Shown here: positions 1-32,000 of the stretch, piece after piece
How positions within the stretch are numbered: the first letter of the stretch is position 1
Layout of the letters: the number at the start of each line of letters is the position of its first letter
NCBI RefSeq assembly: GCF_009617975.1
Contig: NZ_CP040089.1
Location: 930,001-962,000 of the forward strand
Origin: Candidatus Nanohalobium constans
GTDB lineage: Archaea > Nanohalarchaeota > Nanosalinia > Nanosalinales > Nanosalinaceae
DNA length: 32,000 nucleotides
Reading direction: 5' to 3'
The notes under the pieces: model-generated
The model's input: the letters and a program-made list of their open reading frames with translations, nothing else
Databases searched by the model: none
Told to the model about the DNA's origin: nothing
Made by a program: the position numbers and the translations under genes

Positions 1-1
1 G

Positions 2-427
2 AAATTTGATGAAGATCTTACAGAGTCCGTTTACAGCGAGATAGAGGACAAAGGCTTCCTGGACGAGGAGGCTCGTTTCTTCGTAATTAAAGAGGAAAAA
101 AGGACGATTGTAGGAGATCTGCTGCACTCAGCGCTCTACGACCTAGAGAACGGTACAGAGTTTGACGTAGATGTTTATCCTCGCGACCAGCTCTACAGAG
201 TCCTGGAGAGAGCAATTGTAGACGCCGCAGGAGGAGACGTAGAGGATGTCAGCGAAACCGAGCTAGATGTATTCATGAACGCATTGTTCGATGTCCAGGA
301 TATGGCAGGGAGTAAAGACATAGAAGTATTTGATGCAGTAGACAGCTCCACGGAAAAAATTCGCTCCATGATCATAAATGATAAAACTGAGTTAGACAAG
401 GATGACTTGAAAGGTGTCGCAAGTTGA
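2..427 (+). CDS. 3' part of a gene truncated by the window edge; acidic hypothetical protein
   Basis: Frame 2 is open from the window edge to TGA at 425-427 (ends ...DKDDLKGVAS). The stop overlaps the TTG start of the next gene (TTGA). Composition is acidic like the neighbours. Track ORF 193..399(-) is its antisense shadow. No family recognised. Confidence 0.5.
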   Translation, partial: KFDEDLTESVYSEIEDKGFLDEEARFFVIKEEKRTIVGDLLHSALYDLENGTEFDVDVYPRDQLYRVLERAIVDAAGGDVEDVSETELDVFMNALFDVQDMAGSKDIEVFDAVDSSTEKIRSMIINDKTELDKDDLKGVAS

Positions 428-1524
428 AAGCAATCATTCCATGCGCAGAAAAAGAGGAAAACCTGTTCCCCTTCTCCGAAACCAAGCCCACCGCACTCAT
501 GCCGGTAATGGGCAAACCACTAATCGAACATAATATCGAAGCACTGGAGGAGAACGGAGTAGAGGAAATCTACATAGTTGTAAACCATCTGCAGGAACAG
601 TTCTCAGACCGGTTTAAAGACAGAGACGGCGTAAAACTTGTACACCAGGAAGAACTGGACGGAACAGCGTCTGCAGTCAAAACATGCGACTTCATAGAGG
701 ACGACTTCCTTGTATTAAACGGAGATGTTATAGTTTCCGAAAGAGATATCGGAAACCTTCTGCAAAAGTTCAGAAATACTGGAGAAACAAGTATACTTGC
801 CACAGATGAGAAAGCACCTGAAAAGTTCGGAGTGCTCAGCATTCAGAACGACGAAGTAGCAGATATCCAGGAAAAACCCGAAGAACCAGAAAATCCACTG
901 GTTAATACCGGTATCTATGTCTTTAGCCCGGAAATTTTCGAAGCTATAGAAGACCTGGAAGAAGACGAAACCAGTATCACCGACGCCGTCAGAGACCTGA
1001 TAGAGTCTGAAGGTGCTCGATTCGAACTAGTACAGGATTACTGGATCGATATAGGTTCAGGAGAGAAACTCTGGAAAGCAGATCAAATCAAAAGAGAATA
1101 CGAAATAGAAGAATCGGAAATAAGCGGAAAGGCAGAAGTAAGCGAAGACGCAGCCATAGAAGGAGAAGCAGTAGTTGAAGAAGGGGCAGAGATTAAGCCT
1201 GGAACAGTCATCGAAGGAAAATGCTTCATAGGAGAAAACAGTATTGTCGGTCCGAACACAACGATCAGAGGCTCAAGCATCGCCGATAACTCCCAGTTAG
1301 ATCACTGCAGTATTGAGAACAGCCTAGTTTTCGAGAGCAACATAGTTGACTCCTTCGTCGCAGTCGAAGGTACTGTGCTGGCAGAAGAATGCGACATAAA
1401 ATCAGGCACCGTAATCAGAGAATGCTTGATAGGTGCCAGAAGCTTTATCGACATGAACAACTCCATCAGAGGTACCAAGTTCGTACCTGACGCACGGACC
1501 GACCTGGGCGAAATCAGCAAGTAG
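424..1524 (+). CDS. Sugar-phosphate nucleotidyltransferase-fold protein with C-terminal left-handed beta-helix (LbH) domain; non-canonical NTP-binding loop
   Basis: Nucleotidyltransferase motifs LVLNGDVIV, EKPEEP and NTGIYVF, plus C-terminal hexapeptide repeats (IEGEAVVEEGAEIKPGTVIEGKCFIGENSIVGPNTTI...). The N-terminal loop reads IPCAEKEENLFP...KPT instead of the IPAAGKGTR...PK seen in the canonical paralog at 30457..31185. TTG start. Confidence 0.8.
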   Translation: MKAIIPCAEKEENLFPFSETKPTALMPVMGKPLIEHNIEALEENGVEEIYIVVNHLQEQFSDRFKDRDGVKLVHQEELDGTASAVKTCDFIEDDFLVLNGDVIVSERDIGNLLQKFRNTGETSILATDEKAPEKFGVLSIQNDEVADIQEKPEEPENPLVNTGIYVFSPEIFEAIEDLEEDETSITDAVRDLIESEGARFELVQDYWIDIGSGEKLWKADQIKREYEIEESEISGKAEVSEDAAIEGEAVVEEGAEIKPGTVIEGKCFIGENSIVGPNTTIRGSSIADNSQLDHCSIENSLVFESNIVDSFVAVEGTVLAEECDIKSGTVIRECLIGARSFIDMNNSIRGTKFVPDARTDLGEISK

Positions 1525-1583
1525 GAACAGCCAGCATGAGAGCAGCCAGCAGGATATTAAATTCTTCTTGAGAAGTCATAATT

Positions 1584-2834
1584 GTGAAAGCAGTTATACT
1601 GGCAGCCGGCAAGTCAAGCCGTTTCAAGCCGCTCAGCGACAAGAGACACAAAGCACTGACAGAAGTAATGGGCAAACCACTGATCCAGCACACAATCGAC
1701 GCACTAAGAGATACAGAAGTAGAAGAAATCATAGTAGTTCAAGGACCTGAAAGAGAAATAGAGGATTCAGGCGTAGATGCTGACCGGTTTGTAGTGCAGG
1801 AAGAGCCAAAAGGTATGGGCAACGCACTCCAACAAGCTGAAAAATATCTAGAAAACAGGTTCCTGGTCCTAACACCTTACAGATCGAAGGCTTCAGAGCT
1901 CTACCAGCCAATGATTGACAAAGCAGAAGAAAATGATACTGAAACCATTTTCGTGGCATCAGAAACAGAAAACCCAGAGAAATACGGCATATTAGACATA
2001 GAAAACGGTAAAGTCAGCGACATAGTCGAGAAGCCTGACCTTGAGGAAGCACCAAGCAACATGAAGGCTGTAGGGATGTATATGCTAAGCAAAGACTTCT
2101 TCAACTACCTAAATAACACTCAAACCAAGGAATACCAGTACGAAGAAGCCCTTTCAAACCAGATGAAAGATAAAAAAGCGTCATTTGTAGAAGCAGAAGA
2201 AGATCCCAACTCGATAAAATATCCATGGGATCTCTTCGAAGTCATGAAGGAGCTTTTAGATAACTCAGAAAGAAGTATAAGTGGAGAAGCTGAGATAGCA
2301 GACTCAGCAGAAGTAAAAGGAAAAGTTATAGTAGAAGAAGGCGCCAAAATATTTGAAAACGCTGTAGTAAAAGGACCTGCCTACATCGGAGAAGATGCAG
2401 TCGTAGGAAACAACGCCTTGATCAGAAACTATTCCTGCATCGAAAGAGGAACTACAGTTGGAGCCAACTGTGAAGCAAGAAACACTTCTTTCCAGCCTGA
2501 AAGCTCCATGCACTCTCAGTTCGTAGGAGACTCAATAATAGGTAGAAACACGAGTATCGGAGCAGGAACAGTCATAGCCAACAGAAACTTCCGAGAAGAC
2601 GGTGAAAGACCGGAAATCAGTACAGATTTAATCGGGAAGGACTACAGCAAAGAGACAGGAAGAAACTCTCTAGGCTGCTTCATCGGCGAGAATGTAGATA
2701 TAGGAGTTAACTCATCCATCATGCCTGGCGTTCAAATCGGCAGCGACTCGAAAATAGGTCCTGGAACAGTAGTTAAGGAAAATGTAGAAAACGATACTAC
2801 TGTTTACAGCAGTCAAGAGGTTGAAAAGAAGTGA
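1584..2834 (+). CDS. GlmU-like bifunctional nucleotidyltransferase / LbH acetyltransferase family protein
   Basis: G-loop ILAAGKSSRF and an EKP motif. The C-terminal LbH carries GlmU-type acetyltransferase signatures (MHSQFVGDSIIG, GAGTVIANRN). GTG start. The usual GD metal motif position reads LVLTPYRSK. Confidence 0.85.
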   Translation: MKAVILAAGKSSRFKPLSDKRHKALTEVMGKPLIQHTIDALRDTEVEEIIVVQGPEREIEDSGVDADRFVVQEEPKGMGNALQQAEKYLENRFLVLTPYRSKASELYQPMIDKAEENDTETIFVASETENPEKYGILDIENGKVSDIVEKPDLEEAPSNMKAVGMYMLSKDFFNYLNNTQTKEYQYEEALSNQMKDKKASFVEAEEDPNSIKYPWDLFEVMKELLDNSERSISGEAEIADSAEVKGKVIVEEGAKIFENAVVKGPAYIGEDAVVGNNALIRNYSCIERGTTVGANCEARNTSFQPESSMHSQFVGDSIIGRNTSIGAGTVIANRNFREDGERPEISTDLIGKDYSKETGRNSLGCFIGENVDIGVNSSIMPGVQIGSDSKIGPGTVVKENVENDTTVYSSQEVEKK

Positions 2835-3322
2835 AAATCGGCGTAGACTTTGACAGAGTCCTTTTCAAGACCGATGACTTCAATAAGCACCTGAAGCAGG
2901 AGGTTGAAGGATTGGAACATGTGGATAGTTCTCCTACAAATGATCACGGAGTTTACAGCCCGGAAATTCACGCAGAGCTGTGCGGAATTGATGTAGAAGA
3001 GATATACAAGGTTATGGAAAATCTGGAGAAGTTTCTCTACGATGACTTAGATGTGCTGCAGAGTTCAGAGCACGAGATATTGATAGTCAGTCGTGGTGAG
3101 ACTGAGTTCCAGAAGAGAAAGATCGAAGGCTCAGGAGCAGACGAATACGCTGACAGGGTCGTAGTAGTGGAAAAAGGATCAAAAGAAGTAGAAGACATTG
3201 ATTTCTTGATCGATGATAGAAAGAAGGAGCTAGAAGATGCTGACTTACCTGGTTTTGAATTTGACAGAGAAATACATTCCTTGAGAGATGCTCTGGAAGA
3301 GGCTGAGAAGCATGAAGCCTGA
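2831..3322 (+). CDS. HAD-superfamily hydrolase-like protein
   Basis: Motif I DxDxV (GVDFDRVLF), ILIVSRG (motif II Ser) and FLIDDRKKE (motif IV DD). The GTG start overlaps the upstream stop (GTGA). Lies between nucleotide-sugar genes. Confidence 0.6.
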   Translation: MKIGVDFDRVLFKTDDFNKHLKQEVEGLEHVDSSPTNDHGVYSPEIHAELCGIDVEEIYKVMENLEKFLYDDLDVLQSSEHEILIVSRGETEFQKRKIEGSGADEYADRVVVVEKGSKEVEDIDFLIDDRKKELEDADLPGFEFDREIHSLRDALEEAEKHEA

Positions 3323-4625
3323 AAAAGTGTTCAAGAGATACGATGTAAGAGGAAGATATCCTGAAGAATTAGATGAAGAGTTTGTTGGGATGATGGGCGA
3401 AAGTTTGGCGGCCTTCGCCAAGGAAAACTATAATAACAAGGTTGTAGTATGTAGAGACACCAAGAAAAGCTCTATGCAGCTTAAAGAGTGTTTGATCGAA
3501 GGTTTACGATCTCAGGGCATTGATGTCTTGGATATTGGGATCGGTCCTACGGACATGGCTGCCTTTCAAGGACAGAAAAACAACTGTATCAGCGTCCAAG
3601 TAACCTCGTCCCACATGCCACTGGACTTTAACGGATTGAAGTTCATGTATCCAGAGGGAAACGGTTTCGTGAACGAAGATCTCAATAAGTTAGAAGAACT
3701 GTTCCATAAGAAAGGGAAAGGTAAGAAGGAGGAAGGAAGCTATATGGAGATTGAATCTGCGAGAGATGAATACAGTGAGGCTCTTGAAAACTTCGTTAAG
3801 GAAAAAATAGGAGTTCCTGACGACAGAAGAATAGTTGTTGAGACAATGGGCGGCGCCGGGTCTCATGTTTTACCTGAAGTCTTGGAGAATCTCGGATTCG
3901 ATGTGGAAACAGTTTCAGGTGAAAAGCTGCCTTACCGTAACCCTCCAAATCCCAAGCCAGAGAACTTGAAGGATTTAGAGCGAAAGGTCGAAGAGAATGA
4001 CGCCTACATAGGTTTGGCGCTGGATTTAGATGCGGATCGAGTTACTGCATACTTTGAAGGAGAATGGATTTCCGGCGACGACTTATTCTGTATCTTCGCA
4101 CAGCTCTTCCAAGGAGATGTGGTTGCTTCTGTAGATACAGATACTAAATTAGAGGAGTTCGCGGAGAATATATATTATACTCGTGTTGGAGATCCGTTTG
4201 TGATAGATGAAACCATTGAGAAGAACGCTGTTCTCTCTGGAGAGCCTAATGGACACTACTGTTTTCCAGAGTTCACAAACTATAATTCTGGAACTTTAGC
4301 CGGATTAATACTGGCGTGCAGCAACCTGGAGGAATTAATGGCGAATATTCCGGAAAGCCATATTGCTCAAGATAACTTCGAGTTTGGAGATAACTCTGAT
4401 GCAGAAGAAGCTATGGAGAAGTTCAAAGAATGTGTTGAAGACAAGTTTGAAGTCTTGTCGACTGTTGATGGTGTTAAGTTTGATTTGTATGGCTCTACTG
4501 TTTTAGCCCGTTTATCAGGATCTTCACCTGTTATCCGTGTGAAATGTTTTGATGAGATGGAGAAGAGGGCTGAAGATGCTTTGAGTAATGTTCGAGAAAT
4601 CTTCGGGAAAGACATAAATCATTAG
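3312..4625 (+). CDS. Alpha-D-phosphohexomutase (PMM/PGM/GlmM family)
   Basis: All four family loops are recognisable: phosphoserine loop TSSHMPLDFNGLKF, metal loop DLDADR, sugar loop GEPNGH and phosphate loop RLSGSSPVIRV. ATG at 3312 (MKPEKVFKRYDVRG) is preferred over the track start at 3288. Confidence 0.85.
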   Translation: MKPEKVFKRYDVRGRYPEELDEEFVGMMGESLAAFAKENYNNKVVVCRDTKKSSMQLKECLIEGLRSQGIDVLDIGIGPTDMAAFQGQKNNCISVQVTSSHMPLDFNGLKFMYPEGNGFVNEDLNKLEELFHKKGKGKKEEGSYMEIESARDEYSEALENFVKEKIGVPDDRRIVVETMGGAGSHVLPEVLENLGFDVETVSGEKLPYRNPPNPKPENLKDLERKVEENDAYIGLALDLDADRVTAYFEGEWISGDDLFCIFAQLFQGDVVASVDTDTKLEEFAENIYYTRVGDPFVIDETIEKNAVLSGEPNGHYCFPEFTNYNSGTLAGLILACSNLEELMANIPESHIAQDNFEFGDNSDAEEAMEKFKECVEDKFEVLSTVDGVKFDLYGSTVLARLSGSSPVIRVKCFDEMEKRAEDALSNVREIFGKDINH

Positions 4626-4636
4626 AGAGCTGTTCT

Positions 4637-4864
4637 TTGTGTATGGAAGAAGACGAACTGTTGTACGAGTTTAAGCAAGGTCCTTATGATGTGCTTGAGT
4701 TTGAGGTCAGAGAGAAAGATGAGAAAGCTGTAATTGAGATTAACGGCGGTGACTTAGGTCGATTGCCTATTGAGAACTTGAAGACGATTGATGAGCTGCG
4801 GAATGCTCTGGATGAAATTGAAAGGGTTATTGAAGAGAAGGAGCGTCGTAAAGAAGATCTTTGA
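4637..4864 (+). CDS. Small acidic hypothetical protein
   Basis: 75-codon ORF co-directional with the operon and acidic in composition. The ATG at 4643 is the more likely start. No family recognised. Confidence 0.4.
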   Translation: MCMEEDELLYEFKQGPYDVLEFEVREKDEKAVIEINGGDLGRLPIENLKTIDELRNALDEIERVIEEKERRKEDL

Positions 4865-4893
4865 AACAAAAAGAAAGAAGAATAAGACTAGTT

Positions 4894-4926
4894 AAGAGAT
4901 GTTAACTAAGTTTTTATACATCTCTT
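4894..4926. terminator. 9-bp stem hairpin between convergent genes (candidate bidirectional terminator)
   Basis: AAGAGATGT (4894-4902) and ACATCTCTT (4918-4926) are perfect reverse complements with a 15-nt T-rich loop. It lies 30 nt after the stop at 4864 and overlaps the last codons of the minus gene 4914..5081. Confidence 0.35.
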
Positions 4927-5081
4927 GCTTTTACGGTCTTTCGTCCGTTCTCTTGTGCTCTTTCTACTGCTCTCTCGACTAGTTCTTTGACTTCGTCGTC
5001 AAGTGCATCGTAGAAATCGCTTCCGACATTGACGCCATCTGCAGCGTCACGAACGCCAGACTTCTTAAGTACATCTACCAT
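4914..5081 (-). CDS. Small histone-fold-like protein (DUF1931-like), 55 aa; absent from the ORF track
   Basis: Hand translation gives MVDVLKKSGVRDAADGVNVGSDFYDALDDEVKELVERAVERAQENGRKTVKARDV. The pattern (NVSSDFYDALDEEV...A..RA..NGRKTV.PRD) matches my recollection of small archaeal DUF1931 proteins. Below the 60-aa track cut-off. Confidence 0.55.
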   Translation of the reverse strand: MVDVLKKSGVRDAADGVNVGSDFYDALDDEVKELVERAVERAQENGRKTVKARDV

Positions 5082-5348
5082 GTTAATTCACCAAGTAAAG
5101 ATTGGAACGCCCGGTTTTTATAGGTAAGGGCGGTTACTCCGTGAAAATCAACCGAACAACCACCTGTAGACCGAATAATGTGTTGAACCTGGATAACACT
5201 TTTCAGTAATCTGAAGAGTTAAGCTTTGCTTAGGCGCATTAACTGACCCAGATAAATGTTTTCAAGACCGGTATGTTGTTATATGGTTCGGTTTTTATCG
5301 AACAGTTTCCTTCTAGAATTAAAAATAATGCTTCACTAAGTTTGATTT

Positions 5349-5927
5349 ATGGAGTTAGACTTTGATACAGTTAAGGCTCTTTCCTCGCAGACCCGGATAC
5401 AGATTCTTCACGAAACAGTCTCTAAAGAGCCGACTCCTACAGATATAAGTAAGTCAATAGACCGGAGTAAATCCACCGTCTCTTCACATCTCTCCAAGCT
5501 TCAGGAAGCCGGACTTGTGGAGAAGGACGAGGTTGATGGGCGGAGAAGAGTAATTTACAGAGCTACAGATAAAACCGAGACGATTTTGAAAGGTAAAAAC
5601 CAGAAGGTTAAGTTCTCCATCCTGTCAACTGTTTCAAGCATCTGGATCGGAGTAGGATTAACATTAAGCAGTTTAAAAAACATAACAGAGACAGGATCAA
5701 GTGCTGCTAAGAGTCAGGCAGGGCAGATGGGTGCTATGGCGCTGGATAAGACAGAAAGTACTGCTTCAGAGACAGGTGGAGCGTTTTTATCTAATTTTCA
5801 GCCCGTTGATTCTCTGCTTTTCGTAGGAGTATTTTTCCTTTCGATCGCGTTAGCAAGCCTCATATACGGATTGTTTATGTCTCAGATAGGCGGTCGGGAA
5901 AAGGTTTCTCAAGCTCTTAAGTCTTGA
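5349..5927 (+). CDS. ArsR-type winged-helix transcription regulator with C-terminal transmembrane segments
   Basis: N-terminus ALSSQTRIQILHETVSKEPTPTDISKSIDRSKSTVSSHLSKLQEAGLVEKDEVDGRRRVIY is a typical ArsR HTH plus wing. Hydrophobic stretches follow (FSILSTVSSIWIGVGLTL and LLFVGVFFLSIALASLIYGLF). Confidence 0.7.
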   Translation: MELDFDTVKALSSQTRIQILHETVSKEPTPTDISKSIDRSKSTVSSHLSKLQEAGLVEKDEVDGRRRVIYRATDKTETILKGKNQKVKFSILSTVSSIWIGVGLTLSSLKNITETGSSAAKSQAGQMGAMALDKTESTASETGGAFLSNFQPVDSLLFVGVFFLSIALASLIYGLFMSQIGGREKVSQALKS

Positions 5928-6002
5928 CAATCCTTACTATATATAAGGAAAAGCTAGAATGTTTTTGAGATAAAAAATTTGGAATAGTCGTGAAACTGTA
6001 AT

Positions 6003-6461
6003 ATGCCTACATGCCAACTTTGCGGAGAAGACACAGAGTCAACTAAAAAAGCTAAAATCGAAGGTGCAGTCCTCAAAGTATGCGATTCATGCGCAGAAAT
6101 GGGCGAAACCATCAAGACAAAGTCCAAGAAATCGAAGAAGAAAAGAAAGAAGAAGAGGAAGAATAGAAGCAAGTCAGAACAAAAAGTACTGGCCAATAAT
6201 TACGGAAAGAAAATCAGAGAGGAAAGAGAAGATAGAGAGCTGACTATGGACGAACTGTCCGACCAGATTAATGAGAAGACATCAGTAATCCAGAAGGTTG
6301 AACAGGAGGAACTGAAGCCAGATCAATCATTGGCAGGTAAACTATCCAAGAAACTTGGAATAGACCTGTATGTCAACCCACAAGTCACCGACTACGATGA
6401 CACAAGTGATGGAGACAGCAGGAAAGCCACATTAGGCGATGTGGCCGACATAAAAAACTAA
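6003..6461 (+). CDS. mbf1: Archaeal multiprotein bridging factor 1 (aMBF1): Zn-ribbon plus Cro/C1-type HTH
   Basis: N-terminal CxxC...CxxC ribbon (CQLCGED...CDSCAEMG) and C-terminal HTH (IREEREDRELTMDELSDQINEKTSVIQKVEQEELKP). Contains an unusual Lys-rich linker. Confidence 0.85.
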   Translation: MPTCQLCGEDTESTKKAKIEGAVLKVCDSCAEMGETIKTKSKKSKKKRKKKRKNRSKSEQKVLANNYGKKIREEREDRELTMDELSDQINEKTSVIQKVEQEELKPDQSLAGKLSKKLGIDLYVNPQVTDYDDTSDGDSRKATLGDVADIKN

Positions 6462-6470
6462 ATTCTTTCT

Positions 6471-7325
6471 TTATTCCTTTACTTTTCCATTGCAGTTTAC
6501 TCTAAGACCATGAAGCACCGCGATCTCTCCTAGTCCGCAAAGAGTCATTTCTGGCATCTCATTTACTATCTCACTTTTCACACCGTTCTCTATAGATTCC
6601 AGTATGGTGTCAAAATGATTCAATGCTACAGCACCCCCGAAAATTATCTTGTCTGGGTTGTACAGATTGATGAGATTGGCTACACCAACACAAGTCCTGT
6701 GCTTAAACTCATCTAGAGCTTCTTCGGCATTCTCACCTTCTACCTCAAAGAGCTCCTTCGGATCATCAATTTCCAAATCGTGGAGTTCATGAGCCATGTT
6801 AGTAAGATTATTGCCCGAACAGTAGGCCTCCCAATGGCCAGTACCGCCACACCCACATTCAAGCTCTTCCCCAATCTTCATGTGACCAACCTCACCGAAG
6901 TTACCATCGCGCCCTTCCACCAAGTCACCGTTAGAGATGAAAGCCGCTCCAATACCAGAACTTATAGTGATATAAAGAAGATTTTCTGCAGTTTCACCGT
7001 AATAATATTCTCCTAATACTGCAGCCGCACAATCATTAATTATTTCCACTTCAGCAAATTCTTCAAGAGGATCCTTAAGCTGAACAAACTCCTTATCGAT
7101 GTTAGGAGGATAAAACAAGCCCTTATCCTTGTCAATCGGTCCCGCTGCAGCAACAGCAACCTTTTCCAGCTCAGGATAATCTGCTTCCTCCAGAACAGAC
7201 TTTACAGACTTGTTAATATCACTTAGGAAGTCTGCTGTCTTAATTTCCTTGACTTTTCGGAAATCATCGTCTCCTACTCCGAAAAAAGTGTTAGTGCCTC
7301 CAATATCAATACACAGGAACGCCAT
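6471..7325 (-). CDS. ROK-family sugar kinase (glucokinase-like)
   Basis: ATP-binding N-terminus MAFLCIDIGGTNT and ROK Zn motif variant CGCGGTGHWEAYCSG. The ATG at 7325 is preferred over the track start at 7412, because a TATA-like box lies 26-35 nt upstream of 7325. Confidence 0.85.
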   Translation of the reverse strand: MAFLCIDIGGTNTFFGVGDDDFRKVKEIKTADFLSDINKSVKSVLEEADYPELEKVAVAAAGPIDKDKGLFYPPNIDKEFVQLKDPLEEFAEVEIINDCAAAVLGEYYYGETAENLLYITISSGIGAAFISNGDLVEGRDGNFGEVGHMKIGEELECGCGGTGHWEAYCSGNNLTNMAHELHDLEIDDPKELFEVEGENAEEALDEFKHRTCVGVANLINLYNPDKIIFGGAVALNHFDTILESIENGVKSEIVNEMPEMTLCGLGEIAVLHGLRVNCNGKVKE

Positions 7326-7350
7326 AATACAATGTAATACGAAGAACTGG

Positions 7351-7360
7351 TTTAAATTAA
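7351..7360 (-). promoter_or_regulatory. TATA-like box for a leaderless ROK kinase transcript
   Basis: The minus strand reads TTAATTTAAA, 26-35 nt upstream of the ATG at 7325. Confidence 0.3.
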
Positions 7361-7533
7361 CACAGTGAGAGAAGTCAAAAATTTTCCAGTAGAAGTAGGG
7401 TGAATCACCCATAGAACACAGCCTTCAAACCATCAATCAGGACATCTCTGACATACTGTGTCTTCATTAGTCTCACTTAAAACAATATATTTATAATCAT
7501 GAGCTTAGGGCTAAGAGATGTACCAATACGCCA

Positions 7534-8352
7534 TTAGCCGCTTTTCCATGCAATTAACAAGGAGCCTTTCTTCACTGTAAAGGTGTCGTTCCTACTTGTA
7601 CTCTGAGACCACTGATAATTTAGAGTTCCCGAACTATTCCCGTTTTTGATTCTTCCCTTTAAAACAAATCCAACAGGTCCCTGCCCCACATTCCTGGTAG
7701 AAGAAGAATCTGCATTCCATTTATTCCCTTCTCTAGCCCAGTTGATAGTTGATCCCGAAGGCCCTGAAAAAGAGTTTTTAACATAACCATCAGAAGGACA
7801 ATCCACGAAAACCCTTATCTCAAAATTCCATAACTCTTCAGAACCTATGGATAGTTTTAGTTCATTGTCATCTTGAAGTATAGTTTGACTCGACAAACTT
7901 TCATCGCTTGTCTTTTTCACAAGTTTCGTATTACCTGCTCTCTTCATCTGTAATGTTCCATTGCCTTGTGCAGTAGGTACCTTTCCTTGGACTCCAGAAG
8001 TAGAAAGAGATTCTATGTCTGGCACTTGAGCCGGTGGAATCTGAGAATTGTCAGAATCCCAAATTGTGGTACCACTAATGGTAGAGATATCATTATCAAC
8101 CCGCAACTCAGAGTTCAGAACTTCTACCGGGCCGCCTTCGTATACTGCAAACTCCTTAGCACTGTCTTCTCCATAGAATTTAAAATCACTTGAACGAACA
8201 TTTACAGCAGATACTGATCCTAAGCTTAAGGCACCTAAGCCAAGTGCTCCTGCACCTAATTTCTTCAAGAACTCACGGCGAGAAACATTATTATCAGAGG
8301 TTTTTGAGGAGTTTTCGGACTCCAGTAGCTGATTCTTTATTATAGTTCTCAT
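7534..8352 (-). CDS. Tat-exported secreted protein of unknown function
   Basis: Twin-arginine signal NNVSRREFLKKLGAGALGLGALSLGSVSA followed by a Ser/Asn/Gly-rich mature region. No family recognised. Confidence 0.65.
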   Translation of the reverse strand: MRTIIKNQLLESENSSKTSDNNVSRREFLKKLGAGALGLGALSLGSVSAVNVRSSDFKFYGEDSAKEFAVYEGGPVEVLNSELRVDNDISTISGTTIWDSDNSQIPPAQVPDIESLSTSGVQGKVPTAQGNGTLQMKRAGNTKLVKKTSDESLSSQTILQDDNELKLSIGSEELWNFEIRVFVDCPSDGYVKNSFSGPSGSTINWAREGNKWNADSSSTRNVGQGPVGFVLKGRIKNGNSSGTLNYQWSQSTSRNDTFTVKKGSLLIAWKSG

Positions 8353-8666
8353 TTTCTCATTTTCTCTCTCTCTAAATTCCTTAACCGCTTCTCAATTTCT
8401 TCGTTATCCATCTCAAAGTGAACCTTCTCAATTACTGTTGAGGGGCTTTATTAAAAAATCCCGGCGCCCTTGAACCCGTGGAATATTACCTGCATAGCTG
8501 AGACCTCAAAAGATTCTTTAACAATCTCTCTACCAAGTTCTTAGTTTTTACGCCAACTTTATATTTATACTCCTGGCTTCCCCTAATAGGTCTTTACTAA
8601 CTCCTCAGGGGATTTTCCCCTCCATTTTCAGTTTTGTGGTTCAGCTTCAGAAAACTTGTGGAAAAG

Positions 8667-9182: not shown

Positions 9183-9211
9183 AATAAAACTTATCTAAAC
9201 TTTCTTTACCT

Positions 9212-9511: not shown

Positions 9512-9517
9512 GAAAAT

Positions 9518-23172: not shown

Positions 23173-23259
23173 AATTGATTTTGTTTAGCAGTGATTTTTT
23201 TAGCTGTTGAACCGGTTTTTAGAAAGGATTTTTATGGAGTGTTTGATAGAGTCTGATGT

Positions 23260-23667: not shown

Positions 23668-23765
23668 TTAGGAAAGATCTATCCATTTACCCCTCCCTCC
23701 GATGTAGACCGATAATTTGGTTGTGACAGGATTTTACTCTACTGGCTATTAAGTTGCTGTTTTCT

Positions 23766-24440
23766 CTACCTTGTGTCATCCGGAACTATATCCAGTTCTA
23801 GGTGGTACTTCTTCCCGTTTCTCTCTATATAGGCGTTACGATGTGGAGGATAGGTCAAAGCCCTTAACTCATCTATGAAATCTTCCTTCGATGTTTCTTC
23901 ATTAAGCTTTATCCTTCTCTCATCTTCCAAGTCTTTCTTGTAGTGTGTGGTGCCTCTTCCAGGGCTTTGTTGTGTTTTCTGTATATTTCCTTGTTTGATA
24001 TCAGCCCAGTTTTCCTTGAACTGCTGGACTTGCTCCCTCATCAATCTTTCATGCAAACTTTTCCCTGTGTCGTCAGGATATACCGGCACCTCTCTTCGGT
24101 CTATTATCGGACCGTGATCTATTTCTTCTGTCATTTGGTGTATTGATACGCCGGCAGGAGTATCCTCGATTATAGGCCAGATATACGGATGTGCCCCTCT
24201 GTTATACGGCAGAAAGGATGGATGGAGATTGATTATTCCTTTTTCAGGGACTTCGATTATCTCTTTAGGTACTTTGTGTTCGAAGCCTGCTGAGATAACT
24301 ATTTCTGGCTCCAGTTTTTCTATCAGCGATAGTTGGTCTTTCTCTGTAAGTAGTGCGAGGACATCAGTGTCTTCTCTCTGGTTCAGCCAGTTGTAGATTT
24401 CTTCGCCCGCCTGATTTTGTCCCAGGAAAACTGCCTCCAT
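23766..24440 (-). CDS. Formyltransferase-family protein (catalytic domain only); candidate sugar N-formyltransferase
   Basis: Formyl-transferase catalytic signature INLHPSFLPYNRG (Asn, His) and HQMTEEIDHGPII (Asp). 224 aa. Flanked by nucleotide-sugar epimerases. Confidence 0.75.
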   Translation of the reverse strand: MEAVFLGQNQAGEEIYNWLNQREDTDVLALLTEKDQLSLIEKLEPEIVISAGFEHKVPKEIIEVPEKGIINLHPSFLPYNRGAHPYIWPIIEDTPAGVSIHQMTEEIDHGPIIDRREVPVYPDDTGKSLHERLMREQVQQFKENWADIKQGNIQKTQQSPGRGTTHYKKDLEDERRIKLNEETSKEDFIDELRALTYPPHRNAYIERNGKKYHLELDIVPDDTR

Positions 24441-24538: not shown

Positions 24539-25435
24539 ATGGAAATCGCAGTAACCGGAGGCGCCGGATTCATCGGCAGCCATCTAGCAGAAAAACTAAT
24601 CGAAAAAGGTCACGACCTAACACTAATCGACAACCTCTCCTCCGGAGAACAAAAAAACATGCCCGAAGAAGCAGATTTTGAAAAAATAGACATCAAAGAA
24701 GATGATCTAACATGTCTAAGCGGGATAGATGTAGTTTTCCATCTTGCAGCCAACCCTAAAGTCAATACTTTTCCAGAAGACAGGGACAAAGACTTTGAGG
24801 AGAATTTGAAAGGTACAAAAAATGTTTTGGAAGCCTGCGAGAAATATGAAGTTGGAGAACTTATTTTTGCTTCTTCTTCAGTTGTATATGGCGAAGATGC
24901 CGAAATTCCAACTCCTGAAGACGCTAACATGAGCCCTATATCGATGTACGGCGCCACAAAATGCGGAGGAGAGCACATGTGCCAAGTCTACCAGCAGATC
25001 TTCGACATAGATCTAACTATCGTTAGACTGGCAAATATTGTCGGCGGCAGAAACCAGAAAGGAGTAATATACGACTTCATCCACAAACTGAAAGACAATC
25101 CAGAAAAACTAGTGATACTAGGCAACGGAAAACAGAGGAAAAGTTATCTGCATGTCGAAGACACGGTAGAAGGGATACTCGCTGCCCGGAAGTCAGATAA
25201 AACCGTTTTCAACATCGGTTCAGAGGACTCCATCGATGTAGATGGAATAGCCGACATAGTAGCAGACGAACTAGACCTAAGCCCGGATTACGAATACACT
25301 GGCGGAGAGAAAGGCTGGGAGGGCGATGTACCAGAAATGAGATTGAGTATTGAAAAATTGAAGTCGGAAGGCTGGAATCCAGAGAAAAATTCCGCTGAAT
25401 CAGTGCGGAAAACTGTTCGAGAACTCCTGATTTAA
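24539..25435 (+). CDS. NAD-dependent nucleotide-sugar epimerase/dehydratase (UDP-glucose 4-epimerase-like)
   Basis: VTGGAGFIGSHLAEKL, ASSSVVYG and catalytic YGATK. Confidence 0.85.
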   Translation: MEIAVTGGAGFIGSHLAEKLIEKGHDLTLIDNLSSGEQKNMPEEADFEKIDIKEDDLTCLSGIDVVFHLAANPKVNTFPEDRDKDFEENLKGTKNVLEACEKYEVGELIFASSSVVYGEDAEIPTPEDANMSPISMYGATKCGGEHMCQVYQQIFDIDLTIVRLANIVGGRNQKGVIYDFIHKLKDNPEKLVILGNGKQRKSYLHVEDTVEGILAARKSDKTVFNIGSEDSIDVDGIADIVADELDLSPDYEYTGGEKGWEGDVPEMRLSIEKLKSEGWNPEKNSAESVRKTVRELLI

Positions 25436-27650: not shown

Positions 27651-28619
27651 TTAGAATGTTCCCGAAGCCATCAAAGGAACTTTAGACCCTGCTGCCGCAA
27701 TAGGAACGGCCATGTACCCCAATTTTCTCAATTTATCCATAATCTCCTTGTCGTCTTTGTTTTGGGCTCTTCCTGCTCTTTCTTTGGTGTTTTCTACATC
27801 TTGTAGCCATGCAGGGATTTCATCGCTTTTGTCTGTGGATACTTCGCTTCCTAGGCTTCTGAATCCTGCCCAGTACTTTGGTGAAATCGGTACATCGTCT
27901 TTGTTGAGTCCTTCCGGCAGATCTTCTTCTGTTTCCGGGTAGCTGTTGATTTCTACTCCTGTGATGTCTGGCACCATGTGGAACCAGGATACATCCCATA
28001 CATCTCTTTCGTCTAGTTGTAGGATGGGGTGTACTCTGATGTGGTCTGGGTCGCTTCTTGGACTGTAGAAGTCTTCGTCACCTCTACTTTCGTGTTCGTC
28101 CCATCTTACTCCGTTGATCACTGCTTCAATATTGTGGTTTTCAAGCAGTTCGTGCATTGGAACTGTTTTGAGAAGGTGGTTTCCTGCTTCTGTATCCATG
28201 AGCCATGGTACTTCTTCGTAGTCTCCTACTTCTTCAGCTGCTTCCTGATTTCTGTCGTTGAGTTCTGCCACAGGTACTTTGTCTCCTGGTTGGTCTGCTT
28301 TTTCTATTAGGTCTTCGTTTTTGGCCGTCATTACTTCGAATCCCCAGTTGTCGGCTAGTCTTTCGACATAGTCTTCGAGTTCGTCGAAGTGTTGTCCGTG
28401 GTCTACGAACATGAACTTGGGTTTGTCGAAGCCGTGTTCTTCGCAGACTCTTTTGACAAGCCATGCTGTCAGTGTGGAGTCTTTCCCCCCTGTGAATCCG
28501 ATTACTACATTGTCGGTGTCGTATTCTTCTAGTGCTTGTTTGACGACTTCTTCTCCTGCTCTGATTTTAGCTTTTATCGGTGCGTTCTCAATTTCGTCTC
28601 GTGTTACAGGTGCTTCCAT
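27651..28619 (-). CDS. PP-loop ATP pyrophosphatase of the PAPS-reductase/CysD family (sulfate adenylyltransferase subunit 2-like), orphan
   Basis: PP-loop VIGFTGGKDST, then VDHGQHF, NGVRWDEHESR, IRVHPIL, FRSLGS and TKERAGR...MDKLRKLGYM. By eye this is collinear with CysD along its whole length. Only one Cys, so no Fe-S or CxxC motifs. ATG at 28619; the track start at 28631 is a TTG. Confidence 0.8.
   Translation of the reverse strand: MEAPVTRDEIENAPIKAKIRAGEEVVKQALEEYDTDNVVIGFTGGKDSTLTAWLVKRVCEEHGFDKPKFMFVDHGQHFDELEDYVERLADNWGFEVMTAKNEDLIEKADQPGDKVPVAELNDRNQEAAEEVGDYEEVPWLMDTEAGNHLLKTVPMHELLENHNIEAVINGVRWDEHESRGDEDFYSPRSDPDHIRVHPILQLDERDVWDVSWFHMVPDITGVEINSYPETEEDLPEGLNKDDVPISPKYWAGFRSLGSEVSTDKSDEIPAWLQDVENTKERAGRAQNKDDKEIMDKLRKLGYMAVPIAAAGSKVPLMASGTF
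27714..27749 (-). repeat. Copy A of a 36-nt segment shared with the RHH gene (encodes KEIMDKLRKLGY)
   Basis: Codon-by-codon comparison with 28647-28682 gives 28/36 nt and 10/12 aa identical. Confidence 0.6.
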
Positions 28620-28637
28620 AGATAGTATCAACTCTGT

Positions 28638-28829
28638 TTATTCTAGATATCCTAATTGTCTCAGTTTATCCGCGATCTCCTTTGCCTGATCATCGTCAAG
28701 CTCCTCTTGCTGGTTCTCTGAATCAGCCAGTTCTCTAAGCTTGTCTTGTACGAATCTTGATAGATTGATGTGATTCTCATCGACAAACTCTGCCAAATCC
28801 TCAGGCAAAGAAATAGTCTTCCTCGGCAT
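28638..28829 (-). CDS. Ribbon-helix-helix (CopG/Arc-type) DNA-binding protein, 63 aa
   Basis: MPRKTISLPEDLAEFVDENHINLSRFVQDKLRE is a beta-strand/helix/helix RHH pattern, followed by an acidic linker and the tail KEIADKLRQLGYLE. The long track version (to 29081) overlaps the flippase gene and is rejected. The stop lies 18 nt upstream of the CysD-like ATG. Confidence 0.7.
   Translation of the reverse strand: MPRKTISLPEDLAEFVDENHINLSRFVQDKLRELADSENQQEELDDDQAKEIADKLRQLGYLE
28647..28682 (-). repeat. Copy B of the 36-nt segment shared with the CysD-like gene (encodes KEIADKLRQLGY)
   Basis: See 27714-27749: 28/36 nt identical. Confidence 0.6.
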
Positions 28830-28830
28830 A

Positions 28831-28847
28831 ATGCATAACTTATGCAT
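28831..28847. promoter_or_regulatory. Perfect 17-bp palindrome ATGCATAA-c-TTATGCAT; candidate RHH operator
   Basis: It lies between the TATA-like TTATTAA (minus strand, 28853-28859) and the start codon of the RHH gene at 28829, within the divergent intergenic region shared with the flippase gene. Confidence 0.5.
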
Positions 28848-28871
28848 ATTGGTTAATAAGTGGTTGGTGAA

Positions 28872-28879
28872 GTTTAAAC
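28872..28879 (+). promoter_or_regulatory. TATA-like box (GTTTAAAC) for a leaderless flippase transcript
   Basis: 25-32 nt upstream of the ATG at 28904. Confidence 0.3.
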
Positions 28880-28903
28880 AGTTCTTATCTTCAAACTTCA
28901 GGT

Positions 28904-30460
28904 ATGGGAGATGCCGATCAAAAAGCATTGAACGCACTGGCAAAGGGTGCTGGCGTGACTGCGATAGGGATGGGTATTTCCAAGGTATTGACTTATCTTT
29001 ACCGGGTTTCAATTGCCCGTTTTGTTGGTCCTGAGGCGTACGGTCAGTTGTCAACTGCTTTGATGGTTGTCGGTATTGCAAGCACTGTCGCCTACCTGGC
29101 TCTGGGCTCAGGTTTGAAGAAGTTTATACCAGAATTCAGAAGTAGAGATGATTTTGCAAGTATTAAGGGCATAGTTATCAGTGCACTCCAGTTAACCGTT
29201 CCTGTATCTATAATCATTTTCCTGGCAGTGTTCTTCGGAGCAGAGTTCATCGCTGTAACTATTTTTGAAAACCCGAAACTAGTTCCTCTCATAAAGATTC
29301 TATCGTTCACTATACCTGCAGGAACCCTTTCCAGACTCTTCTTCGATACAACACTGGGATTCAACAAGATAATTTACAAGACCGGGACAGTCAGGATATT
29401 TCAAAACATTGTTCAGCTTGGGACAACCCTGATACTTCTTTTAATGGGTTTTAAAGTAGTGAGTGCTGCTTATGGCTGGTTACTGGGAACCGTAGTTGCT
29501 GCCATTCTCGGTTTCTACTTTATGGAGAAAAAAGTAGGTCCAATACTTTTCTCCAAGACTAAACCCTCCTATCACCGAAAAAAGCTGCTCAGATTTTCCA
29601 CCCCACTGCTACTCTCAGGAATAATAGGAACACTGCTCGGCTGGGCAGACACAGGACTGCTACAATACTTCATGGAAGACCTTGAAGTAGGACTGTACAA
29701 CGCAGCCCTGCCTACCGCCATACTGATACTTCTGCCTCACAAAGCAATTGGAAGCCTGGCAATCACTTCATTCTCCGAGCTAAAGGAAAGAGACAAAGAA
29801 AGCGTAGAGAGCTCCATACAAAGAGCCACATACTGGGTTTTCTCACTTGTATTCCCTACCTTCCTCATAATGCTCCTATTCTCAGACAAAATACTGCAAA
29901 TACTCTGGGGATCAGAATACACACAAGCCTCAATAGCACTCTCAATTCTAGCAACAGGATACCTAATAGACGCCCTAGTAGGCAGAGTAGGAAGCCTCCT
30001 CCAATCAGAAGGACACACAAAATACATACTATACAACAACACAGCAGCACTAACACTCAACATCATACTCAACATCATACTAATACCTCCATACGGAATA
30101 GCTGGAGCAGCAATCGCCACAGCAACCTCCACCATACTAACCAACGTATTAATGTACATCGAAGTCCGGAAAAAAGAAGGAATAAACAGCATACCCCACA
30201 AAAAAATCTCAAAAATAGTACTAACCGGACTAATACCACTATCAATCATAATAACACTAGACACAATACTCTTCACAAACACACCATACTGGTTCCTGAT
30301 CCCAGCAGGAACAACCTACATTACAACCTACATCCTCCTATTCCTCAAAACAATAGGACTTGGAGAAGAAGAAAAAGAAGTATTTCTCAGGATAGGAGAG
30401 ATCACAGGAACAAAAGATAAGGTTAAAAAAATACTGGCAACCATAGAGAGAAGAATTTAA
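28904..30460 (+). CDS. Oligosaccharide/polysaccharide flippase (MOP superfamily, Wzx/RfbX-like)
   Basis: 518 aa and about 14 TM segments. N-terminus NALAKGAGVTAIGMGISKVLTYLYRVSIARFVGPEAYGQ is typical of polysaccharide-biosynthesis (Wzx) proteins. Confidence 0.8.
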   Translation: MGDADQKALNALAKGAGVTAIGMGISKVLTYLYRVSIARFVGPEAYGQLSTALMVVGIASTVAYLALGSGLKKFIPEFRSRDDFASIKGIVISALQLTVPVSIIIFLAVFFGAEFIAVTIFENPKLVPLIKILSFTIPAGTLSRLFFDTTLGFNKIIYKTGTVRIFQNIVQLGTTLILLLMGFKVVSAAYGWLLGTVVAAILGFYFMEKKVGPILFSKTKPSYHRKKLLRFSTPLLLSGIIGTLLGWADTGLLQYFMEDLEVGLYNAALPTAILILLPHKAIGSLAITSFSELKERDKESVESSIQRATYWVFSLVFPTFLIMLLFSDKILQILWGSEYTQASIALSILATGYLIDALVGRVGSLLQSEGHTKYILYNNTAALTLNIILNIILIPPYGIAGAAIATATSTILTNVLMYIEVRKKEGINSIPHKKISKIVLTGLIPLSIIITLDTILFTNTPYWFLIPAGTTYITTYILLFLKTIGLGEEEKEVFLRIGEITGTKDKVKKILATIERRI

Positions 30461-31185
30461 TCCCTTAAATCATACTCTCTGTTGGCTTCTCTCAGTCTTT
30501 CTGGAGTTCCAACATCTATTCGTGAACCTTGGATTTCATCATATCCCACTTTGTAACCATTTTCTCTCATCAAGTCTATTGCGTCGGTTAATTGGTACTC
30601 ATCGCCTTTACCCTTCTCTATATTATCTATAGCCTCGAAGATTTGAGGTCCGAAGACATACATACCTGAGATACACAGATCAGAAGGTGCTTCATCAGCA
30701 GACGGCTTCTCAACCATTCCCTCCACCAAGTTATCATCTCCAGGTTCTAGGACGCCATAAGAAGTCACATCATCTGGCTTGAAAGCTCCGATGGTTGCGT
30801 CCATGCTGTTGTGTTTGTGGAACTTGACCAGCTCATTCATAGCCTTCTTATCATCAACATAGTTGTCTCCCAGAACCACTGCAAAATGTTCATCATTGAT
30901 TACATGTTCTCCAGCTTTTACTGCTCCAGCTAGACCATTTCTGTCATCCTGAACCACATAAGTCAACTGTACGCCGTAATCATCACCAGATCCTAAGTAG
31001 TCTAGGATTGCGTGCTGTTTCCAGCCAACCACAATTACAATTTCTTCAATACCTGCTTCCTTCATATCCTCAATACAGTGTTCGATCACTGCTTTTTCCC
31101 CTACAGGAAGAAGTTCCTTCGGATAAGCGTTCGTGAACGGCTCCATTCTAGTGCCTTTCCCAGCTGCCGGAATCAATCCTTTCAT
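30457..31185 (-). CDS. aglF: Sugar-1-phosphate nucleotidyltransferase, canonical (UTP-glucose-1-phosphate uridylyltransferase / AglF-like)
   Basis: LIPAAGKGTRMEPFTNAYPKELLPV, VVLGDNYV, EKP and ISGMYVF are all canonical. No LbH domain. Confidence 0.8.
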   Translation of the reverse strand: MKGLIPAAGKGTRMEPFTNAYPKELLPVGEKAVIEHCIEDMKEAGIEEIVIVVGWKQHAILDYLGSGDDYGVQLTYVVQDDRNGLAGAVKAGEHVINDEHFAVVLGDNYVDDKKAMNELVKFHKHNSMDATIGAFKPDDVTSYGVLEPGDDNLVEGMVEKPSADEAPSDLCISGMYVFGPQIFEAIDNIEKGKGDEYQLTDAIDLMRENGYKVGYDEIQGSRIDVGTPERLREANREYDLRD

Positions 31186-31239
31186 GATAATACCACATAT
31201 TACCGATATCTTTTATCCTTATCTCGGCAAACAAAAAGT

Positions 31240-32000
31240 ATGCACATCTCAGTCGTAGGAACAGGCTATGTCGGTTTGCCGGCAGGAACAGGATTGGCAT
31301 CCAGAGGAAACCAAGTCACATGTATAGATATAGACGAAGAAAAAGTAGAGAAGATCAACAATGGAGACTGTCCAATCTACGAAGAAGATCTTCCAGAATT
31401 ACTTGAAGAGATGGTTTCTCAAGGAAAACTTTCTGCTACTACAAACACTGCTGAAGCTGTAGCCGACTCAGATATTACTTTTCTGGCTGTCGGAACGCCG
31501 ATGAACAATGATGGAAGCATAAATCTAGAGTATATTAAACAGGCTGCTGAAGACGCAGCAGAAGGAATAAAGGAAAAAGACGGATACCACGTATTCGTCG
31601 TTAAATCTACTGTAGTTCCTACAACGACCGAAGAAGAAATAATCCCTATACTAGAAGTAGTTTCCGGCAAAAAAGCCGGTGAAGACTTCGGGGTATGCAT
31701 GAACCCGGAATTCCTGAGAGAAGGAACCGCACTAAACGACTTCCTAGAACCAGACAGAATAGTAATCGGCGAACTAGATGAGAAATCCGGAGACACACTG
31801 GAGAAAGTATACTCGGAATTTGATGCACCAATTATGAGAACTTCTCTGAAGGCGGCCGAACTGATTAAATATGCTTCCAACTCTCTGCTAGCAACTAAAA
31901 TTTCATTTATCAACGAGATCGGCAACCTGTGTAAAGAACTTGGTATAGATGTCTACGAAGTAGCAGACGGAGTTGGAATGGATCACAGAGTCAAAAGAGA
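31240..32000 (+). CDS. aglM: UDP-glucose/GDP-mannose 6-dehydrogenase family (AglM-like), 3'-truncated by the window edge
   Basis: MHISVVGTGYVGLPAGTGLA Rossmann start, FLAVGTP, VVKSTVVP, NPEFLREG and KYASNSLLATKISFINE. The frame is open to the window end. Track ORF 31419..31925(-) is its antisense shadow. Confidence 0.9.
   Translation, partial: MHISVVGTGYVGLPAGTGLASRGNQVTCIDIDEEKVEKINNGDCPIYEEDLPELLEEMVSQGKLSATTNTAEAVADSDITFLAVGTPMNNDGSINLEYIKQAAEDAAEGIKEKDGYHVFVVKSTVVPTTTEEEIIPILEVVSGKKAGEDFGVCMNPEFLREGTALNDFLEPDRIVIGELDEKSGDTLEKVYSEFDAPIMRTSLKAAELIKYASNSLLATKISFINEIGNLCKELGIDVYEVADGVGMDHRVKR

Follow-up and report, generated by a model that had tools for sequence, protein, structure and literature searches.

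The window analysed here is a 32-kb stretch of the Candidatus Nanohalobium constans LC1Nh chromosome (NZ_CP040089.1, positions 930,001 to 962,000). The genome (CP040089) is closed, with 973,463 bp, a GC content of 43.2% and 39 tRNA genes (PMC7443923). The locus is of the cell-surface glycosylation type, and its predicted proteins are acidic and archaeal. Our subject is its synonymous codon usage, which changes in a patchwork of blocks between A/C-ending and G/T-ending codons, in places within intact genes. Pfam matches bear out the gene calls of an initial annotation made by eye: two nucleotidyltransferases, a phosphohexomutase, MBF1, a ROK kinase, OGG, aglH, aglB, SecF, SecD, an SDR gene, NAC, TctA, an AI-2E transporter, an LTD protein, two epimerases, a formyltransferase, PIN/AbrB modules, and a LAGLIDADG gene. 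A PAPS-reductase-like gene and a flippase were named from the Pfam domains recorded for their homologues, not from a scan of their own sequences.

We measured codon bias as the coding-strand keto skew at third codon positions (keto3), (G3+T3-A3-C3)/N, for each gene and in 50-codon windows. Among genes, keto3 ranges from -0.51 (27651-28631) to +0.47 (20004-21005). In 50-codon windows it ranges from -0.92 to +0.84. When these windows are conditioned on amino acid, the variance of their z-scores is 5.9, whereas in 200 synonymous shuffles it averages 1.00 and never exceeds 1.30; the absolute z-score exceeds 3 in 39 of the 186 windows. The differences thus outlast amino-acid control, and amino-acid composition is rejected as their cause. 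Two-fold sites shift too. Across the A/C, unbiased, and G/T classes, T/(C+T) is 0.22, 0.52, and 0.74, and G/(A+G) at purine sites is 0.25, 0.46, and 0.70. The heterogeneity of codon regimes is real.

The shape of this heterogeneity differs from what the initial annotation described. Its four direct counts of G+T (52/60, 36/60, 18/60, and 12/60) are exact on recounting. Its division of the locus into two sharply distinct regimes is not borne out. Instead there are three states, or a continuum: A/C (-0.35 to -0.76), unbiased (about 0), and G/T (+0.49, with a peak of +0.84). The histogram of z-scores is broad, not bimodal. Most of the stretches listed as G/T-ending prove to be unbiased, among them the HAD gene (0.00), the phosphohexomutase (+0.09), aglH (+0.05), the LAGLIDADG gene (-0.03), aglF (+0.05), the first half of the flippase (+0.03), and the C-terminal part of aglB (about 0). 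Of that list, 19337-21687 and 23260-23667 alone are clearly G/T. Similarly, the wording that other stretches use "almost only" A/C-ending codons fits the 3' half of the flippase and the body of the PAPS-like gene (85-88%), and none of the other stretches to which it was applied.

Optimal segmentation divides 31 kb into 9 segments on the coding strand and 12 on the physical strand. A purely physical-strand model is rejected, as it needs the larger number of segments and has a worse penalised likelihood than the coding-strand model. Neither model suffices alone. Six of the coding-strand segments have the bounds and values given in Table 1; the other three are 12924-19334 (keto3 -0.35), 21690-27747 (-0.17), and 30394-31168 (0). 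The first of these three is a single segment, in keeping with the earlier proposal that the bias at 12.9-19.1 kb tracks the coding strand. The companion proposal, that the bias at 19.1-24.4 kb tracks the physical strand, also stands, spacers included, and the physical-strand segment 20309-24408 has a skew of +0.29. The G/T block is strongest at the TctA/AI-2E junction, with +0.68 over 19457-20306 and the maximum of the 50-codon windows. Within the long unbiased region, MBF1 is the sole A/C gene (-0.24), and it is A/C in all relatives too. Over the window as a whole the physical slope is -0.03, i.e. there is no net strand effect, and there are about ten switches in 32 kb.

Table 1. Codon-bias blocks of the window, with positions counted from its first nucleotide; skew is coding-strand keto3 unless stated otherwise.
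Position	Strand	Content	Skew
426..2753	+	A/C block: two sugar-1-phosphate nucleotidyltransferase/acetyltransferase genes (424-1524, 1584-2834)	-0.43; gene z-scores -5.3, -5.4
2756..12921	.	Unbiased region: HAD-like gene, phosphohexomutase, HTH, MBF1, ROK kinase, Tat protein, tRNA-Ser, PRC, wHTH, OGG, aglH, last ~190 codons of aglB	+0.04; physical strand -0.06
12924..15059	-	First ~690 codons of aglB, moderately A/C on the coding strand (+ strand G/T-rich)	physical-strand segment +0.31
15062..18145	+	A/C block: secF, secD, most of the SDR gene	-0.45
18439..19334	.	NAC (-, 18439-18786) and first ~180 codons of TctA (+), each A/C on its own coding strand	NAC -0.22; TctA codons 1-100 -0.28, -0.36
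19337..21687	+	G/T block: 3' part of TctA, AI-2E transporter, LTD protein	+0.49
21690..24408	.	Continuation of + strand keto-rich domain: 115-aa ORF, epimerase 1, 135-aa membrane ORF, formyltransferase, and spacers, with genes of both orientations	
24539..25435	+	Epimerase 2, A/C; first 45 codons most extreme	-0.30
27750..28566	-	Body of the PAPS-reductase-like (CysD-like) gene, strongly A/C; last ~30 codons not	-0.71
28569..29590	.	Unbiased: 5' end of the PAPS-like gene, small RHH gene, first ~230 codons of the flippase	~0
29593..30391	+	3' half of the flippase, most extreme A/C stretch of the window	-0.76; 50-codon windows -0.92
30394..31185	-	aglF-like nucleotidyltransferase, unbiased	+0.05
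31240..32000	+	aglM-like UDP-glucose dehydrogenase, A/C; extends past the end of the window	-0.29

A single strand-asymmetric mutational composition, read in its two orientations, underlies both biased regimes. At four-fold sites, A/C windows contain A.50, C.23, G.11, and T.16, and G/T windows contain A.15, C.10, G.19, and T.55. These compositions are reverse complements of each other, and the unbiased class is symmetric. All amino acids shift in one direction between the regimes. The shift reaches beyond third positions. The fraction of Leu NTR codons that begin with C is 0.76, 0.49, and 0.23 across the A/C, unbiased, and G/T regimes. The 42-nt spacer between TctA and AI-2E (19962-20003) has a keto skew of +0.52, and all five spacers between 19962 and 23765, a divergent promoter region among them, have a keto excess on the + strand. 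First-position skew moves with the block, relative to orthologues, in TctA, AI-2E, LTD, the formyltransferase (on its own strand), and the 3' half of the flippase, where keto1 is -0.19 compared with -0.01 to -0.05 in orthologues. In the N-terminal half of the flippase, keto1, keto2, and keto3 are all orthologue-like. Proteins follow as well: derived replacements in TctA number 40 toward G/T and 17 away, and membrane helices are rich in V/F/L/G in one block type and in I/T/N/K in the other. Because Leu first positions, spacers, and amino acids shift too, the pressure is one of strand-asymmetric mutation, not tRNA-based selection.

Replication-type strand skew, which the initial annotation had invoked, is thus an apt description of the bias, as the regimes are reverse complements at four-fold sites and a collinear relative, described below, sorts the same compositions strictly by orientation. 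As in such skew, G+T is in excess on one strand at synonymous sites and the complement appears in genes of opposite orientation. Spacers, Leu first positions, and keto1 shift in the same way, except in secF and secD, where the shift is confined to third positions. In the window, the sign of the bias is not set uniformly by gene orientation, as the negligible slope and the 12 physical-strand segments show, and about ten changes of polarity within 31 kb are more than a uniform replication skew can produce. The sign is uniformly set by orientation in L012/L013, L009, and L028. A replication origin between the SDR gene and TctA was rejected: the flanking - strand genes do not have the expected signs, and neither a spacer nor an orc1/cdc6 gene is present there. 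Transcriptional asymmetry would make the coding strand rich in G+T, in proportion to transcription; the coding strand is A/C-rich in 10 of about 14 strong blocks, and abutting genes of one direction can differ in bias, as three do in L092. The low skew of a ribosomal protein gene in relatives (-0.06 and -0.16) also speaks against transcription or expression as the cause.

We compared the window with homologous loci in related genomes and metagenomes, which carry the labels L001 onward. All relatives (L001, L002, L003, L005, L007, L008, L010, and L012) share with the window a conserved gene order and orientation, both from aglH to epimerase 1 and from the PAPS-like gene to aglM. In L001, L005, L002, and L003 the order aglH-aglB-secF-secD-(SDR)-NAC-TctA-AI-2E-LTD-x-epimerase is kept, without AI-2E in L003. 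SecD in these four collinear loci is 64-76% identical to that of the window, third positions are saturated against it, and three of the four show far weaker variation. The closest relative is L010 (ENA ERZ27257097), an independently assembled metagenome contig with SecD 82% and NAC 90% identical. Its mosaic is like that of the window. secF and secD (-0.50 and -0.48), SDR, and NAC are A/C, and TctA is G/T together with the first part of AI-2E. Borders are displaced from those of the window: TctA is G/T from codon 1, so that the part that is A/C in the window reads +0.24 and +0.48, and AI-2E turns neutral some 100 codons in. Roughly one in two comparable third positions differs between the window and L010, and blocks of opposite polarity are strong in both. 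In L010 (1757-3441), secD is split into two ORFs of 450 and 111 amino acids near codon 450, by a frameshift or an assembly error.

Two JGI metagenome contigs, L012 (1-13533; Ga0102936_1000694) and L013 (1-13025; Ga0102942_1000666), have the same gene order as the window, with SecD 73%, aglH 75%, and TctA 74% identical. They came from a metagenome scan in which nanohaloarchaeal loci were few. Their physical polarity is uniform, with keto3 of +0.5 to +0.83 in + genes and -0.57 to -0.77 in - genes. Here secF and secD are G/T (+0.59 and +0.52 in L012), opposite to their A/C state in the window and L010. Four-fold sites of L012 contain T.61 and G.18 in + genes, and A.68 and C.21 in - genes. In L012/L013, first positions are shifted by about 0.2, and the first 50 codons of AI-2E all end in G/T (keto3 as high as +1.0). 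The GC skew of the whole sequence is near zero in the first kilobase and lies between +0.16 and +0.56 thereafter. AT skew is -0.18 to -0.62 per 1-kb window, apart from +0.08 over the SDR gene, which in L012 (7246-7995) is the one deviating gene-sized patch. Third positions in the + genes of L012/L013 are 90-100% G/T, and protein composition follows.

Other relatives behave differently again. L009, from the same scaffold as L002 (KOPF15-1 scaffold_8), has the opposite polarity, with a physical slope of -0.26. L001 and L005 are nearly neutral, and L008 (Ca. Nanohalovita) is mixed. The left end of the window has its closest relative in L092, where three co-directional abutting genes read +0.29, -0.50, and -0.03; its first nucleotidyltransferase is A/C (-0.50) and its second is not (-0.03), where both are A/C in the window. 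Once separate strand means are removed, the residual heterogeneity is 9.2 in L013, 7.3 in L010, 6.0 in the window, and 4.4 in L012. These are the top four of 49 loci, whose median is 1.5. The strand-asymmetric pressure is a property of the Nanohalobium clade, and is uniform and extreme, reversed, or nearly absent depending on the relative. An unrelated archaeal contig (L028, 1-14570; JGI Ga0209542_10004927) with SecD 38% identical and a GC content of 0.42 also has extreme uniform physical skew, with four-fold A.49 and C.34 in + genes and T.62 and G.23 in - genes.

A second, smaller component belongs to the genes themselves, and the patchwork as first described had left it out. Across the window, gene keto3 correlates with the mean of orthologues in distant, synonymously saturated genomes (r=0.54, p=0.008), and a family effect persists after removal of locus-by-strand means (p=0.0025). 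The PAPS-like gene, the flippase, aglM, MBF1, SecD, and NAC are A/C in nearly every genome (orthologues of the PAPS-like gene, -0.18 to -0.34; of aglM, -0.33 and -0.31), and small antitoxin genes are G/T almost everywhere. Of the six genomes compared, four (window, L001, L003, and L005) have an A/C epimerase 2, as does L013; L007 (+0.03) and L008 (+0.21) do not. This gene-specific A/C preference is conserved across genera and accounts for about 30% of between-gene variance. It may reflect weak selection for C- or A-ending codons, or a transcript-linked bias. Alone, it cannot yield the extreme or intragenic blocks.

Several block borders lie inside genes. Permutation tests place change points in TctA (about 19446), the flippase (about 29597), the PAPS-like gene (about 27755, a step at codon 292-293), and epimerase 2 (codon 45, with 5% of the preceding codons G/T-ending), all with p<=0.003. 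A further change point lies in aglB (about 12905, codon 692-693; p=0.01). These agree with switches first noticed within intact ORFs at 12.95, 19.14, 27.76, and 29.54 kb. The changes had been taken to be sharp steps. That holds for the PAPS-like and AI-2E genes, where steps fit better than gradients, and not for TctA and the flippase, where a gradient fits at least equally well.

We tentatively favor an origin of the patchwork in homologous recombination, a reading that we place a little short of an even chance. Sub-genic to multi-gene tracts would have been swapped between lineages that differ in the polarity or strength of their skew, on top of the gene-specific preference. The pressure itself, which drives one DNA strand toward T and G and its partner toward A and C, is established, and it has altered spacers, the first positions of Leu and other codons, and the amino acids of membrane helices. 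The collinear region would have carried opposite or no skew in related donor lineages, from which tracts would have been imported into the LC1Nh locus. Each tract would have kept the reading frame and a roughly equal protein distance while bringing along the strand signature of its donor, and borders could therefore fall anywhere, intact genes included. Much of the patchwork would predate the split from L010, with borders shifting later.

Several results point this way. Collinear lineages with both polarities, and without polarity, coexist, and L012 has its one deviating patch at the SDR gene. Recombination itself is evident at the locus. Adjacent segments differ significantly in phylogenetic affinity with the frame preserved, as in other mosaic loci. 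In aglB, informative sites favor L012 over L001 by 134:88 before alignment column 750 and L001 over L012 by 32:10 after it, in the last ~140 columns (Fisher p=1.5e-5). The affinity of the protein thus changes from L012-like to L001-like near column 750-800, and the regime border is at codon ~692. In the glycosylation cluster, the L002/L009 genome matches the window at 95% protein identity in PAPS-like and aglF, at 61-66% in the flippase between them, and at 67% in SecD. This strong gene-by-gene incongruence is seen on comparing window positions 27651-31185 with L002 19721-20635 and L009 10001-12282. Homologous recombination together with bacterial-type skew is documented in another DPANN archaeon, Ca. 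Forterrea (PMC5905446).

Recombination between lineages of opposite skew, one of two origins suggested by the initial annotation, is therefore plausible from the coexisting polarities, the aglB sites, and the incongruence of adjacent genes, and it is unproven. A number of observations weigh against it. None of the regime borders has been shown to match a genealogical breakpoint, and synonymous sites are too saturated for finer mapping. Protein identity is unchanged across the borders of the TctA 5' part, the AI-2E 3' part, the second nucleotidyltransferase, and the flippase 3' half, so any donor allele would need to have been roughly as far removed as the one it displaced. A donor was not found; the closest proteins in the database are 76-82% identical. 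A logit-linear gradient is as good as or better than a single step in TctA (Bayesian information criterion 451 vs 462) and the flippase (546 vs 549). The sign of several blocks is predictable from gene identity in distant genomes. Blocks of opposite polarity that stay strong in the window and L010 despite ~50% third-position divergence could be locally maintained, and not relics. Finally, the skew of LC1Nh is known from the 32-kb window alone.

Two particular transfers were considered and set aside. That the G/T block came in recently from an L012-like lineage is rejected, since the high third-position identity is at the level expected by chance for two G/T-rich sequences; over the first 100 columns of AI-2E, protein identity between the window and L012 is only 52-54%. 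A chimeric flippase with a distant donor is rejected as well, both halves being as near to eleven orthologues as these are to one another.

The main competing account, which we consider clearly less probable than recombination, is that the domains arise and persist in place. Kilobase stretches would undergo strand-asymmetric damage or repair of opposite polarity, without exchange between lineages. Possible causes are single-strand exposure by transcription or R-loops, or a variable direction of the replication fork. Exposure in R-loops could be self-reinforcing because a G-rich non-template strand favors R-loops. In-place domains would suit the gradients, which peak at the TctA/AI-2E junction and at the flippase 3' end and do not form plateaus, and the differences in regime between close relatives without a change in protein distance. 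They would also fit the strength of both polarities in the window and L010 across substantial synonymous divergence, the tracking of the coding strand at 12924-19334 through four orientation changes, and the conserved gene-specific component. Other observations fit them poorly. The genes of L012 share one physical polarity whatever their orientation, and transcription is therefore not the determinant there. The coding strand is A/C-rich in most strong blocks, opposite to the established pattern of deamination on the non-template strand. Abutting co-directional genes diverge sharply in L092, and the PAPS-like and AI-2E genes fit steps better. No mechanism is known for alternating domains of 0.8-5 kb. 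A more specific form of this idea is that self-reinforcing single-strand exposure, or fork-direction domains under origin-independent replication, create and maintain kilobase domains of extreme, opposite skew in a DPANN archaeon. Such domains would recast both synonymous sites and amino acids inside individual genes, and would drift along the chromosome between sister lineages. We regard this form as unlikely.

Selection on synonymous codons is improbable as the source of the blocks, although it has some points in its favor. A/C-ending codons might suit GNN and UNN anticodons, of which the 39 tRNA genes of the genome would be the source, or might keep mRNA unstructured in a high-salt cytoplasm. 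The correlation with orthologue means and the family effect agree with such selection, as do the six gene families that are A/C nearly everywhere and the restriction of the secF/secD shift to third positions. Against it, Leu first positions, spacers, and amino-acid composition shift as well, the A/C and G/T regimes are exact complements of each other, and L012 is sorted strictly by strand. Halves of genes, and abutting genes that are likely co-operonic, fall in different regimes. The ribosomal protein L10e gene (Pfam Ribosomal_L16; L092 2937-3458, L093 6496-7038) is nearly unbiased, with keto3 of -0.06 and -0.16. The C fraction at two-fold pyrimidine sites, 0.78 vs 0.26, would also imply selection stronger than in fast-growing bacteria, in a slow-growing symbiont with single rRNA genes. 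In relatives, the L10e gene lies ~2 kb upstream of the nucleotidyltransferase pair and serves as an internal control against translational selection.

The remaining two explanations carry very little weight. Replication skew combined with small local inversions that keep their old skew would yield complementary regimes, as flipped segments are, and is most improbable: synteny and orientation are conserved in all relatives and four or more of the borders fall within conserved genes that are intact and full-length, so inversions are excluded, as had been concluded from the intragenic switches. Least credible is a chimeric, strain-mixed assembly, the second origin suggested at the outset, for which nothing speaks beyond the mosaic itself. 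Two DNA samples, one from an enrichment and one from a reconstructed co-culture, gave identical assemblies of this closed genome (PMC7443923). The same blocks occur in L010, an independent contig from another lineage, so an assembly chimera is excluded and the patchwork is older than the split between the window and L010. Similar patchiness is present in L092 and L013, and conspecific strains would not differ at most synonymous sites.

Some further features of the locus were observed. The sole RNA gene found in the window is a tRNA-Ser(GCU) (8666-8757, - strand), inside a 542-bp gap between the genes for the Tat-signal protein and the PRC-barrel protein. Between epimerase 2 and the PAPS-like gene, 25474-27610 holds two PIN (VapC-like) genes, an AbrB/MazE-like antitoxin, and a free-standing LAGLIDADG/HTH gene. 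This insertion is absent at that site in L001 and L005, and a PIN/MazE pair is there in L007 and L008. The longest ORF call for the RHH gene (28638-29081, with a TTG start at 29081) overlaps the start of the flippase (28904-30460) by 178 nt. A shorter RHH gene, with its 5' extension ending near 28900, would match the orthologous 63-amino-acid genes of L007 and L008.

The patchwork can be set beside several known systems. Strand-specific codon usage from replication-associated mutation bias has reportedly been described in Borrelia burgdorferi and Treponema pallidum (McInerney 1998; Lafay et al. 1999). As there, we find two complementary regimes, G/T-ending and A/C-ending, that reach the amino acids, and L012, L009, and L028 act in this way. 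Those bacteria have one regime per orientation over a replichore and switch only at the origin or terminus, whereas the window has about ten switches in 32 kb, some of them intragenic, and the amplitude here is much larger. In animal mitochondrial DNA, the gradients of strand asymmetry are set by the time spent single-stranded. The heavy and light strands of that DNA resemble our blocks in their extreme keto/amino skew, gradients along genes, and reshaped proteins. Mitochondrial DNA, however, is a single small replicon of one polarity, and this is a cellular chromosome of 1 Mb with alternating polarities.

Mosaic pbp and penA genes of Streptococcus and Neisseria arise by homologous replacement, and cell-surface loci are a classic target of it. 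The glycosylation locus is like these mosaics, and like haloarchaeal gene replacement (PMC3542582) and Ca. Forterrea (PMC5905446), in its intact ORFs, internal borders, and neighbors with differing affinities. It is unlike recombinational mosaic genes in that blocks are marked by strand signature and not by divergence, protein distance hardly changes across most borders, and the donor is unmatched. Anomalies of GC skew used as markers of recent inversion or transfer (PMC6220195) likewise take local skew at odds with its surroundings as a trace of history. Here, unlike there, synteny is conserved and borders are intragenic, and inversion therefore does not apply. The GC skew linked to R-loops at promoters and terminators (PMC3787257) is strong, local, and transcript-linked, with gradients, much as the blocks here may be. 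It differs in being eukaryotic, with a G-rich non-template strand over hundreds of bases, from the mostly A/C-rich coding strands over kilobases found here.

In the literature searched, we found no account of strand-specific codon usage in Nanohaloarchaeota. To our knowledge, strand bias of this strength is an exception among cellular chromosomes, and that of L012/L013 is perhaps the strongest. Third positions are up to 90-100% G/T or A/C, and in L012 the GC skew reaches +0.56 and the AT skew -0.62. The effect extends to proteins, as the same membrane helices are spelled with one set of residues or the other depending on the block. Such shared bias inflates or deflates protein identity, and the patchwork, here in a cultivated nanohaloarchaeon, would mislead skew-based origin prediction, detection of foreign DNA by composition, metagenome binning, codon-adaptation indices, and phylogenies. 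Recombination tracts, if that is what the patches are, would carry in their strand signature a built-in label of gene flow in DPANN archaea, which lack genetics. Patches maintained in place would instead imply a local mutational process that has not been described before.

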